Under the pieces are notes generated by a model that was not told the origin of the DNA, did not search any database, and saw nothing but the letters and a program-made list of their open reading frames with translations. A DNA stretch of 64,000 nucleotides from Paraspadella gotoi (taxonomy: Eukaryota > Animalia > Chaetognatha), in assembly GCA_051294375.1 (NCBI GenBank), contig CM119268.1:6267525-6331524 (forward strand), read 5' to 3'. Below are positions 300-63,809 of the stretch, one piece after another (the stretch's first letter is position 1; each line of letters begins with the position of its first letter). The position numbers and the translations under genes were made by a program.

Positions 300-3200
300 C
301 TCCGGCGGCTCATCCTCCGGATCCTCCTGGAAGAGGAAGGGGTGATGCTGCGTCGGGTTCTGCGCTTTCTCAAGGACGTTGCGACCCACGGATCTGAGGA
401 AGGAGCGGGAAGAGGAGGAGAGATGGAGGAGAAAAATGGAGAGGAAACGTGAGAGTAAATAACGCGTGGGGGAAAGAAAACGACAGCGCGGGGAAGATTA
501 TGAGAAAATGTGAGGGGGGAAAAGACGAGAGCGGAGTTAGAAACTTTAAAAATTGACTATCTTAAGCTGGGAGAAAAAGAAAACGGATGGAATAGGGGGT
601 TTTTGAAAAATTTAAAGACGAGAAACGAAAAGTGACAGGACATTAGCGTGGGAATGAGGCGTGATAGAAGTACCGAAGTTGAAGATAGACTAAGACTAAG
701 AGCGAGAAAAAATCGAAGGTACGGCGTTCGCTCAACTTTTTCAACCGCATACGTATCATCCTAATCAGTATTCTTTACTTGTGTTCTCCGCACCATGGCG
801 GGTTTACACCCGCGCCACAGCCAAATTGAGTGGATTCTTTTTCCGGCCGTAACAAAAATTCGAACTCCTACTTCACCATCACCAAACTCAGAATATTCTC
901 ATAGCCAAGTGCCATCACCTGGACGGATATCGTCCTCACACTTTGGTGGGTGAGTGAGTGTGTGTGAGAGAGAGAGAGAGAGAGAGAGAGAGAGAGAGAG
1001 AGAGAGAGAGAGAGAGAGAGAGAGAGAGAGAGACTAATAAATCATCGCTTGGTGGCTTTGATCGCGATTCAGGACGCGTCGCCAACTAAGTCATGAAACT
1101 ATACTTTTTTCTGCATATTTTTTCTTAGACTGTGAAAAAAGTTTTTTTTCCCTAAGACCGAAAGCAGGTGCTCCTTAAAAGAAACGGAAAAATTTCCAGC
1201 TAAACGAGTTTTTTTTTTCACGCTCACGAAACATCACGCCTCGTTTGCATTTTTTAATTGCGGTTAGTAAACGTTTAAAGAGTGCAATAAAATGTTTTTT
1301 TTTCCATGTGGTCATTAAAGAAATTTAACACTGAATTAGAAAGGGAAATAAACTTTACAAATCGAGAATGAGGAAATCATGTCAAGAATTTTTTATACAT
1401 GTTACAAGATTTGACATTTTTTACAGTAAGTTCGAAAATGTTTTTCCCGCGTCATGTACGTTGCTATGAACCATGATGAAGAGTCACTATATGGGACCAT
1501 AGCATCAACTGGTCCCAATATCATTCTATTTTTCGAATGTCTCTTTCTCAATCTTCCAGTAACCAACCTCCGTGACTTTAAAAATTTAAATTTTTGATAG
1601 AAAAAACAACGTAGATACGATGATTTTTAATCGCGAAAATGAAACCATTTCAGCTCTGTCTCCTCGCCCGCCTGGCCTTCACTAACCTGTCAAGACTGGC
1701 CTGAAGGAAGGGATTCTCGAGGAGCTTCTCCGCCGGCGGTCGACGCTTGGGGTTTTTCGTCAGTGCCGATTTGATGAAGTTTTGAAAGCAAACCGTCCAC
1801 CTAAAATGTCAAACTTGTCCTGAGAGGCAATGGCCATCGCCACCGAAATCACGACTAACGAGGCATTTCGAACCTGGTCTTGTCCTTGAGCGTTGGCGGC
1901 TTGAAGCCGCTCTTGGACATGAGAAAGAGCGCTCTCATGGGGTGAAGGTCGAACATCGGAGGTTGGAGCTCGGCCAGCTCGATGGCGGTAATCCCCACGG
2001 CCCAGATGTCGCAGAGATGATTGTATCCACCCTTTCTTTCCACTGCCGCGACCTCGGGAGCCATCCTAAGGGGGAGATTAGCCAAAATTAATTTACAATC
2101 GATTCCATTCGAAAAAAAAAGAGTTTTTTCTTTACCAGTATGGCGTGCCAATGAAAGATTTTCTTTTACACATGGTCTGGGTAATTTGAGCGGAAACGCC
2201 GAAGTCGGCTAACTTGACATCACCGGTTTCCGTTAGCAAAATGTTGGCGCCTAAAATAGGTTACATTTTGATGATATTCGAATAATAATAGTCTGGCATA
2301 TCGTTTGCTCAGGTTAAACAATTTTTTATTCTTCTCGTTGTGTTAAATCCTGAGGTAATCATCAACCCATTATCACTTTTGCTTTTGTACGCAAAACGTC
2401 GTTAGGATAATAGGCGACACGCCAATCGTTCCCCGACGGAGACGGGCGGCCCACCTCCAGCTTCCCTCCCCCCTCCCGTGTTTACCTTTGATGTCTCTGT
2501 GGATCTTCCCCTTGTTATGGAGGTAATGAAGTCCCTTGAGCGTTTCGCGACACACGTAGGCGATTTCCGTCTCCATCAAAGGACCCGTGATGTGGTAGAT
2601 ATCCTGAATGTTAGGAGAGAAGAAGTTCGTAACGAGAAAAAATCGTGAGGCTACTTCAGCTAAGGGATATGGGCGTACTGCTCCGCGCTTTGAAGACCCG
2701 ACGAGAGGCTTCGTAGAAAGAGACGCATAATAATGATAGGAGAACTCTGTTATTTCCAGACAATTAAAAATATTTCAAAGAGAAATTCCCTCAAACTGAG
2801 AACCCAGTTGGACAAATTGAACGAAACAACTTTTTTTTTCGCTTCTTACTCGATGCAAGTCTGTCCGCCATGCAAATCAACTTCAATTGTCGGACTTCCA
2901 AGACAGACTTTTTTTTTGTGTGGCTGAAAAATACCCTTTTTTTGGGTTCCTTTTCCGTCTTCTGGTTTTTTTTTCGATGGCGAATTTTGGTCATCGACGT
3001 CGTTCGCCGGTTCTTGTAGTCGGTTTTGCTACCCCCCCCCCCATTTTTTCTTTTTTTCTTAACGACATCATCTTAAAAACCGAAACAATAGATTTGTATA
3101 TTTGTCAGAATTTTCTCCCGCCCGGTCAGTTGACATGGAAATTGGTTTCATCCCAGATTTTTCAGACATGATCCCCCACCCCTCCTGCCCAACTCGTTTA

Positions 3201-61126: not shown

Positions 61127-63809
61127 TCATTTGACGAAACAAAAGGCTTCAAGTCCCCTGAACAAGACATTACTTCGAGCGACCAAGTACGACGGATTGT
61201 AGGCGTGGAGCCCCGGATAGTCGCGTCCGCGAAGAGCGAACGGCACCGACGCTTCCATCTTGATCGCAAGGTCGAATAGGGACTTTCCCGGAGGCGGCGA
61301 CGATTCACTCGCCGATTCCAGGGTTTCCAAAGCGAAGCCGCCCCCGCTGACGGAGAATTGAGGGCGGTAGTCCGTGCGAGATGGGTTAAGGGTGTTCGTC
61401 TCGGCGCTGGAGTCGAGGCCGACGAAACGAAAAATCCGACCTCGATCGGCGGCGTTGGAGTCTGCCCTCCGGTCGGCGCTCAGTTTGACGTCAGCGTCCC
61501 GCAGCGACGGAAGGGAAGTCGCGGGTTGTACGCCCGAGAGGTTTGAAGTCTGTATTTCGGATCGGCGAGCATCGTCTTCGTAGTCGGGGCTTCGGTTGTT
61601 ATTCTCGTCGCTACTGGGGCGAGGGGTTAATTCTTGGACGACTCCATCTATCTGTGGCGAGACGCTCTCAGCGGCGACGTCATTTCCCGCGCTGGCGACC
61701 GAGGCAACGCGGTCCTTACGGTCTTTTCGATCTTTGGATTCGCTCCTCAAGCGCATCGTGGTCGGTTGCTCGGCTATGCGCCGCTCGAAAAGGCTGTTAA
61801 CCCGTGCGGCGCCCTTGTCTTTGATCAGTTGTAAAGTGGCGGCTCGAAGTTCTTCCGTGAATCTTGAAACGAAAATATTCAAACTATTAGTAATATATTA
61901 CACCGAACAAACAAATTGGTATTTTAATTTATGGCAACTAACTTGGGCACGCCGGTGGACGCCATCCAGTTCATCGCCGCCGAAGGAATTGTCGCCTGAG
62001 GATCGTCGTAATAAGTAAGCACGTAATCTAATCCTTTGTCCTGGAACTTCCCGTGCGGCCGGATCACCATGTTGGACATGTATCGGTGAACGCGAACATA
62101 CTTTTTCCTGTGGGTGCGACGAATTATATTCGGTGGTAACTTCCCAATTTACTCCCCTTAGACGTACGATATCGGCTCCTTGGGATGTTCCACCCCTTTC
62201 GACATGAGGACAGCGACGTTGTTCTCGCGATCGACGAGGAATCGGCGGACGTAAACGTAGTCTCGTCGACTCATCGGAAACGGATAGTGGGTCACCCAGT
62301 GGACCACCTCCGATCCAGAGGCCCTGTCCCGGTCGATCACGTCCAAGGAGACGACGAGCTTGTCCCAAGCTAAAAAGGCAGGGATAGATTTGAAAAGGAA
62401 CTATTGACGTGGATTTCATTCTTGAAGACCCCCTTACCCTTGCGGTATTCGAGATCGACTTGGATGAGATAAAATGCAGCGGCGGGGACGTCGTCCCATG
62501 TCCCGAAAACCTTGTACTGAAAAAGTTCATCGTCGAAGATTGGGCGGCGCCAAACTTTAAGGTTCGGTTTGTCCATCACCGGCTCCCAACCTAATCGCGA
62601 TTTTTAAGAAGATCGCGACTGAAATGGATAAGGCAATCAGCACATTACTTGCCAACCTTCAAGGCATTCTCCTGCAGCCAAGAAAGCCTCCGATGACGAG
62701 ACGGCGGCCTGCTGCTGCTGCGCCGCCGATGGCGACGAGTGAACGTCGGTTTGAGAGGAACAGTTGGAATCCTGTGAAACGCCGTGGTTTCCATTGTTAT
62801 TGCCATGCAACGAGATGACTCCGGCGTTGAGAACGTCGTCCTCTGGGGAGTGCGGCCGTGACGGCTGCTGCCCCGGCTGCTGCGTGGACGTCGCCTCTCT
62901 CGACCTGCGCTCCATTCGACAGCGGGAGTCGAGGATGAGCTTAATGTTTTCCAGTTGGTGAACATCGTTCACGCAGTGAATCATGTCGTCATCGGAGATG
63001 CCGTCTTTGGCCCAGTGAAATAGACAGGCCGAGAGCATCGTTCCGCCAGCTGATCGAATCCCTAAGGGGGAAAGGTTTTGGGGAAAGGTTTAAGGAAAAC
63101 CAAATTAAGCCTATAAGAACATCCGTTTAATATCGTGACGAATAATAACTTGACTTAAAAGGAACTCGTCCTATGGGGACTGCCTCACACTCAGTGCTGG
63201 CGTCGCATGTGTCTCGCTCGATTCTATCTATCGAGCTCATTTCCGAGGAGATTACATCAAACTTGAACAATTTTGAAAACTCTTGCTGGCTTTTACTTCA
63301 TGCCAGAGATATTTTGACGAGCTTCTTCACAGCTCTCTAATGAGGGCTATACTTTTTTTCCGTAGAAACATTTCCTTTTCGACGAGTCTATAGCCTTTCC
63401 ATAATAACGTACCTACGACGGCCTCGTCGTCCATGATGGATCGAAACCGCGTGGCGTAACCGCGCATTACTTTTCGGACGGTTTGCTCCGAGTATATTTC
63501 GCGGTAGAGTTGAAGAATTTTGACGAGGCGCCGCACGCGAAGCGCCGCCACGGAGTGGCATTGCAAAGCGATCTCTTGCGAAGTCTGACGCCCACTTTTG
63601 GCGCTCGTTCGACCACGAAGCCAACACGTCAGACGGAAGTCGCGTCTTGGCCCAGCGGGGGAAGCGCGATGGAGACTGAAATTTAAAACTAATGTGTCAA
63701 CTTTCTCTCGTAACGGCTGACAGAAAAATCAATTGTGGCCTCACCATGACGCCTCCAACGAAGAACTGGCGTACGACCTCAGGAACATAACTGATTTCCA
63801 CGCCATCAT
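61127..63809 (-). CDS. STARD7: StAR-related lipid transfer protein 7 (PC transfer) with C-terminal extension
   Basis: QCHSVAALRVRRLVKILQLYREIYSE, then a START domain (LKVWRR...YKVFGT...QVDLEYRKAWDKLV...HWVTHYPFPMSRRDYVYVRR...DYVLTYYDDPQ); seven exons. Confidence 0.9.

Follow-up and report, generated by a model that had tools for sequence, protein, structure and literature searches.

The 64,000-nucleotide (nt) stretch of DNA presented above, hereafter the window, carries 21 genes, every one of them on the minus strand and arranged head-to-tail over 64 kb. This directional cluster is real. On balance we favour the view that it is made up of a few head-to-tail operons resolved by a spliced leader, with a core of 8–10 genes, a view in which we infer the phylum, the use of a leader in the species itself, the co-transcription and the unit boundaries. 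In this scheme RNA polymerase II would pass through successive genes of the minus-strand run, and individual mRNAs would be freed when the transcript is cleaved at the 3' end of one gene and a spliced leader is trans-spliced onto the next. Support is strongest for a unit of eight genes (cyclase-PGGT1B-ITPA-ZNHIT2-CIB-AKR-DGLUCY-TMEM53), and it likely extends to COQ10-SERBP1, which makes ten.

Twenty-one co-oriented genes on one strand

The sequence-only reading of this DNA had reported 21 co-oriented genes, and the 21 ATG codons and 20 stop codons were indeed found on the minus strand at the positions it gave; its 20 gap lengths agree to the base. From right to left, the gaps between coding sequences (CDS) are, in base pairs (bp), STARD7-GST 370, GST-RPL10A 355, RPL10A-DNAJC14 407, DNAJC14-BRCA2 1009, BRCA2-STIP1 221, STIP1-PURA 718, PURA-KRIT1 723, KRIT1-LETMD1 457, LETMD1-COQ10 320, COQ10-SERBP1 771, SERBP1-cyclase 1354, cyclase-PGGT1B 535, PGGT1B-ITPA 379, ITPA-ZNHIT2 176, ZNHIT2-CIB 162, CIB-AKR 647, AKR-DGLUCY 155, DGLUCY-TMEM53 940, TMEM53-septin 2111 and septin-MAP4K 3090. 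These distances are below 250 bp in 4 of the 20 cases and at most 500 bp in 10, so the claim that the gaps are too short for an untranslated region (UTR) plus a promoter stands for a minority only when judged by CDS bounds alone.

Pfam matches above the curated cut-off were obtained for 19 of the 21 genes; TMEM53 gave a weak DUF829 match (19.4 bits against a cut-off of 25) and SERBP1 had no Pfam match. The minus-strand scan covered 228 of the 395 open reading frames (ORFs) of at least 45 amino acids (aa), plus two trimmed at an N gap. The gene names are presumed from domain architecture. On the plus strand, none of 370 stop-to-stop ORFs (at least 45 aa, free of N) exceeded the Pfam cut-off, with three weak matches below it. 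A codon-usage scan, a weak test whose model mostly senses GC content, picked up nothing resembling coding sequence, on the plus or the minus strand, in 19 of the 20 spacers (best score at most 17, against 27–51 for true exons), while a GC-rich, low-complexity spacer segment at 3.9–4.2 kb scored 27–30 on both strands. ARAGORN found no tRNA in the window, Rfam returned no family at the gathering score (three chance microRNA matches lay far below it) and no leader RNA gene, and the repeat search revealed no motif common to the spacers among the 20 largest families listed. Under random strand choice the run has a chance of 2^-20, or 1e-6, as the sequence-only reading had estimated; when 70% of neighbours share a strand, the value becomes 8e-4.

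RNA contigs spanning consecutive genes

RNA contigs of run X1, from the same species (share 0.69), were compared with positions 13,700–33,699 of the window, an interval covering 10 of the 20 spacers; X1 was taken as RNA on an automatic guess and on its spliced joints. Its listed pieces are spliced and about 99% identical to the window, and the intron ends lie on the minus strand for all 15 listed joints (of 41). One spliced contig of 5,429 nt (record 3) runs through PGGT1B-ITPA-ZNHIT2-CIB-AKR, extends to at most 40 nt from the DGLUCY ATG, and its listed pieces enclose three entire spacers, at 17852–18890 (CIB-AKR), 20656–21399 (ITPA-ZNHIT2) and 21797–22516 (PGGT1B-ITPA). At its depth of 198.7, five bin means were reproduced within 1 nt by the exons plus the spacers covered, with introns of 81, 84, 89, 67 and 229 nt absent from the depth.

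In the bin 19,036–19,702, 199 bases are skipped, corresponding to the 70-nt CIB intron plus 129 nt, and the record coordinates demand the same 129. This skip matches a GT-AG intron reaching from 1 base past the ZNHIT2 stop to 32 bases ahead of the CIB ATG, and RNA joining the end of the ZNHIT2 CDS to the first exon of CIB is thereby computed from depth and coordinates. An alternative 129-nt skip at 19622–19494 was rejected because the CIB start codon would be lost. Genomic DNA could not produce this 129-nt skip.

Other neighbouring contigs nearly touch: the cyclase contig (end near 24,504) and the PGGT1B contig (extending to about 24,501) meet within a few nt; those of COQ10 and SERBP1 abut at about 15 nt; and 47 nt lie between those of DGLUCY and TMEM53. 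Altogether, in 8 of the 10 RNA-covered spacers the contigs either cross the gap or narrow it to about 50 nt; contigs do not reveal where transcripts truly end. In the SERBP1-cyclase and LETMD1-COQ10 spacers, bin depths are inflated or mixed by low-complexity matches. Contigs hardly cover DGLUCY exon 1, and a further run, X2, yielded short, low-depth pieces only.

Several additional observations concern this region. After the computed splice, the 33 nt from the ZNHIT2 TGA to the CIB ATG are in frame and free of stops by eye, and read-through of the stop there would yield a ZNHIT2-CIB fusion protein. Within the CIB-AKR spacer, 18180–18290 is matched by up to 12 other X1 contigs; it lies immediately upstream of AKR and is probably a dispersed repeat. 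Indels relative to the RNA occur at 15759–15892 and 17729–17851 (DGLUCY and AKR CDS), and a gap of 10 N at 17379–17388 lies in an AKR intron; these are likely assembly errors rather than signs of pseudogenes.

Chaetognath leaders on the closest relatives

In a FastTree phylogeny of STIP1, the window protein falls within a clade of 16 transcript proteins (support 1.0) with the named animals outside, and its full-length identity is 54–72% to clade members versus 44–52% to named animals. The best of 80 STIP1 loci (L001, 70% identical) carries, from base 1 onward, the last 16 nt of the chaetognath leader SL2.0; this 16-nt word occurs in 1 of the 80 loci and in the window only with 2 mismatches. 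In the RPL10A tree, the window protein groups with P0164, P0170 and P0172 (support 0.94–0.99), and five of its closest relatives share 84–90% identity over the full protein. These three proteins bear N-terminal read-through peptides with MGEA at the start and CLNF at the end; that of P0172 equals a by-eye translation of leader SL3.2, exactly over EANFYYFTCL, and that of P0164 agrees with a by-eye translation of SL2.0 at 9 of 11 places. SL2.0 and SL3.2 are published chaetognath leaders (PMC2481426, Table 3), and the phylum-specific leader is 36 nt long. The matches contained no protein named as chaetognath.

For both genes, then, the closest relatives carry the phylum's leader (bases 1–16 of L001; P0164, P0170 and P0172). 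Since relatives of RPL10A and STIP1 bear chaetognath leaders, the window is very likely chaetognath, an assignment resting on trees and leader match. The same evidence led us to reject a nematode, arthropod, mollusc or deuterostome origin and upholds the earlier view of an animal that is not a C. elegans-type nematode. Judged from these sequences, the orthologs of window genes 3 (RPL10A) and 6 (STIP1) are trans-spliced, a statement that applies to the orthologs only. In CIB homologs, the extensions are C-terminal read-through and contain no leader peptide. PGGT1B (24147–24154) and DGLUCY (16487–16494), both on the minus strand, share the same pre-start context with an AG one base before the ATG, and these AGs are candidate trans-splice acceptors.

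Signals within the spacers

The polyadenylation-type hexamers AATAAA and ATTAAA are absent from 8 of the 20 spacers, and T exceeds A on the gene strand in 19 of the 20; both observations favour operons. GA/CT microsatellites with CT on the gene strand lie at 966–1033, 4400–4543, 6732–6769, 10550–10628, 11748–11830 and 21448–21486; these six cluster around septin and MAP4K, and two others (9775 and 45602) are oppositely oriented. Septin and MAP4K likely have promoters of their own, each behind its 2–3 kb spacer.

Weighing the alternatives

Several points weigh against a series of leader-resolved operons. A contig across genes does not prove a single transcript, as separately promoted genes whose 3' and 5' UTRs overlap would give the same assembly, and the RNA evidence reaches 10 of the 20 spacers only. 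The 129-nt ZNHIT2-CIB joint is computed, is missing from the 15 listed joints (of 41), and could reflect a CIB start within the last exon of ZNHIT2. A common 5' leader on the window's own mRNAs did not appear at the 12 listed loose ends (of 115) of X1 contigs, and the STIP1 loci L001 and L002 show no neighbouring window gene. When an acceptor position weight matrix built from 23 introns was scored over the 120 nt before the ATGs, the mean was 3.97 versus 3.38 for shuffled sequence, with 167 of 300 shuffles as high; there was no enrichment relative to antisense or 3' UTR controls either. Just ahead of the COQ10 ATG (31,348–31,291, minus strand), a cyclic-AMP-response-element-like palindrome, a GC-rich run and a TATA-like run form a candidate internal promoter, the TATA-like run being too near the ATG for direct use. 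The spacers upstream of septin and MAP4K are 2–3 kb long and contain CT tracts. Finally, the leader is also added to non-operonic chaetognath genes (PMC12460157).

Could the window instead be one very long, kinetoplastid-like polycistronic unit of 17–19 or more genes, from STARD7 to TMEM53, driven by one promoter that lies at the right edge or outside it? The strand is constant over 64 kb, as it is for the named host genes in 120 kb of a Spadella clone; none of the 10 RNA-covered spacers has a demonstrated break, 8 being bridged or closed as described; and genes 3 and 6 have orthologs with a leader. Against this, the longest published chaetognath operon, under a 250-bp rule, has nine genes, the 1,009- and 1,354-bp spacers can house promoters, RNA depth is mixed by low-complexity matches at SERBP1-cyclase and LETMD1-COQ10, promoter-like motifs precede COQ10, and the RNA comparison covers 13,700–33,699 only, short of the right third of the window. 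We regard a single unit of this length as unlikely. What survives of the earlier proposal of 19–20 genes is that leader-resolved polycistronic transcription is likely, from the leader on two orthologs and the contigs across spacers; their union in one unit does not follow, because contigs are not molecules and RNA covers 10 of 20 spacers.

At the other extreme, most of the run might consist of 2–4-gene operons and separately promoted, leader-spliced genes with abutting or overlapping UTRs, co-orientation persisting because trans-spliced genes that tolerate read-through would build up in tandem. The 2,151 published candidate operons together hold 5,061 genes, a mean of about 2.4 each (PMC12460157), just 4 of the 20 CDS gaps are below 250 bp, the acceptor test was negative, and contigs cannot tell overlap from co-transcription. 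However, four consecutive spacers (162–647 bp) lie entirely within RNA, which would confine promoters to transcribed UTR or CDS, and randomly oriented units would still share a strand with a chance of only about 2^-16 (17 units under the 250-bp CDS rule). This arrangement appears quite improbable to us.

That the pattern is a product of chance or an artefact (overlooked plus-strand genes, assembly errors, DNA carried into run X1) is already largely refuted and very hard to credit: the small indels relative to RNA, the N gap, the automatic guess behind the RNA status of X1 and the restriction of the plus-strand scan to ORFs of at least 45 aa leave some room for it, but the absence of plus-strand Pfam matches, a second species with the same pattern, a contig order equal to the assembly order over five genes, and contigs that lack introns and keep spacers speak against it.

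Gene-level features

Table 1. Coordinates of the genes and related features in the window, from right to left
Feature	Position	Strand	Remarks
STARD7-like START-domain gene	61127..63809	-	Pfam START; first gene in window, unit may begin further right
Glutathione S-transferase (GST)	59617..60756	-	GST_N, GST_C; presumably mu class
RPL10A, 216 aa, 6 exons	57978..59261	-	Pfam; AG 20 nt ahead of ATG; closest relatives with chaetognath leader
DNAJC14-like	53256..57570	-	DnaJ and Jiv90
BRCA2-like with BRC repeats	49791..52246	-	PF00634
STIP1/HOP, 555 aa, 6 exons, last intron 3.8 kb	42245..49569	-	Pfam; ortholog L001 with leader at start
PURA-like	39457..41526	-	PurA
KRIT1-like	33968..38733	-	NUDIX_5, ankyrin, FERM_M
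LETMD1-like	31595..33510	-	LETM1_RBD
COQ10-like	30168..31274	-	Polyketide_cyc; RNA joints
SERBP1-like RGG protein (presumed name)	27244..29396	-	RNA joints; 5' UTR intron 29553-29694
Cyclase-family (kynurenine formamidase-like), 302 aa	24683..25889	-	Pfam
PGGT1B-like, 435 aa	22381..24147	-	Prenyltrans; gene model agrees with RNA depth
ITPA-like	21175..22001	-	Ham1p_like
ZNHIT2-like, 385 aa	19668..20998	-	zf-HIT; GC-AG intron 20567-20655
129-nt intron in ZNHIT2-CIB spacer	19538..19666	-	Donor 1 nt past ZNHIT2 stop; deduced from record 3 by two independent sums
CIB2/3-like, 190 aa	18782..19505	-	EF-hand
Aldo-keto reductase (AKR)	16643..18134	-	Pfam
DGLUCY-like (D-glutamate cyclase C-terminal domain)	15019..16487	-	GLUCM-like_C
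TMEM53-like	12530..14078	-	Weak DUF829; RNA joint
Septin	6803..10418	-	Pfam; upstream spacer 2.1 kb with CT tracts
MAP4K-like kinase, cut by left edge	300..3712	-	Pfam; upstream spacer 3.1 kb with CT tracts
RNA contig X1 record 3 (5,429 nt), span	16527..23306	-	PGGT1B 3' half, ITPA, ZNHIT2, CIB, AKR, four spacers

The BRCA2-like gene contains four BRC stretches that pass Pfam and no match to the DNA-binding oligonucleotide-binding (OB) fold, and it ends 221 bp before STIP1; it would seem to be a shortened BRCA2 that lacks the DNA-binding domain. Its N-terminal motif and C-terminal FxPP look like those of BRCA2. The last intron of STIP1 (42458–46267, 3.8 kb) holds nested inverted repeats, with arms at 43969–44018/45729–45778 and 44644–44826/45501–45713, and degenerate, retroelement-like plus-strand ORFs seen by eye, with no Pfam match; intron 3 of the same gene contains a 208-nt direct repeat (46902–47573). 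Two minus-strand introns are of the GC-AG type, one in ZNHIT2 (Table 1), which agrees with the RNA depth, and one in STIP1 (46464–46544), which the open frame requires. A segment of a PURA intron, at 40059–40220, is GC-richer and resembles, by eye, a tRNA-derived short interspersed element; ARAGORN finds no tRNA in it.

Comparison with known systems

In P. gotoi, about half of the genes are trans-spliced and 18% lie in operons, defined by genes less than 250 bp apart and reaching nine genes at most (PMC12460157, Piovani et al. 2025); no operon-specific SL2 was found in chaetognaths (PMC12460157). These published operons, which the sequence-only reading omitted from its list of known cases, leave length as the new element. 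The window resembles them in being very likely chaetognath, probably leader-resolved and composed of housekeeping and metabolic genes with a ribosomal protein inside, and differs from them in its 21 co-oriented genes. The main text of PMC12460157 gives 0 matches for strand, orientation or directional, and 10.1101/2025.01.31.635879 gives 0 for operon; the literature searched held no description of a long run of same-strand genes, whether in chaetognaths or elsewhere among animals, and subscription papers, the operon spreadsheet of PMC12460157 or preprint supplements may hold one.

A parallel is provided by the Spadella cephaloptera bacterial artificial chromosome (BAC) 35A21 (158 kb; Marletaz et al. 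2008). Of the 24 rows in its Table S5 (PMC2481426), the 14 oriented, named, non-transposon genes are all plus over 120 kb, and the four minus rows are all transposon entries; this count omits six rows (a recombinase, a row that gives no orientation, and four on the plus strand that are transposons or carry no label), and the table lists SwissProt-matched models only, two of the 14 possibly being one gene. Like the window, the BAC has unrelated host genes on a single strand; unlike it, it has different genes, looser packing and many transposons, and only a two-gene operon was claimed (PMC2481426). In that operon, RPS14-PCNA, the poly(A) site lies 3 nt from the acceptor, and the authors remarked that further clustered same-orientation genes could be operonic (PMC2481426).

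C. elegans shares with the proposed arrangement the coupling of poly(A) cleavage to leader addition and the co-transcription of co-linear genes past annotated operons, and differs in using an operon-specific SL2 (10.1101/817130; PMC7986045). Ciona and Oikopleura would share with it a single leader class at all positions and very short intercistronic distances, while predicted Ciona operons reach seven genes (PMC7986045). Trypanosomatid polycistronic units contain tens of unrelated, co-oriented, leader-resolved genes. Their absence of strand switches recurs here over 21 genes and over 14 in the Spadella BAC; their near-universal trans-splicing and near-absent cis-introns do not, as the window genes have many cis-introns and trans-splicing reaches only about half of the genes in P. 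gotoi.

Animal operons have been described as short, with seven genes in Ciona and nine in Paraspadella. Two chaetognath loci now present unidirectional runs, one of 14 and one of 21 unrelated genes. The kind of arrangement is already known and its scale appears undescribed; the units may exceed nine genes, the greatest length reported so far for a chaetognath operon. It is conceivable, though doubtful, that chaetognath housekeeping genes lie in kinetoplastid-like directional domains of 60–120 kb or more, with polycistronic units of 15–20 or more intron-containing genes, the longest operons known in an animal, overlooked by 250-bp rules and with some neighbours (ZNHIT2-CIB) cis-spliced into one mRNA. 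If such long transcription units were real, part of an animal genome would have moved towards trypanosome-style post-transcriptional control with its introns kept. Adjacent genes share one strand throughout (21 of 21). On the favoured reading the cluster would work like known chaetognath operons; it is kinetoplastid-like in length and departs from the kinetoplastid pattern in its abundant introns.

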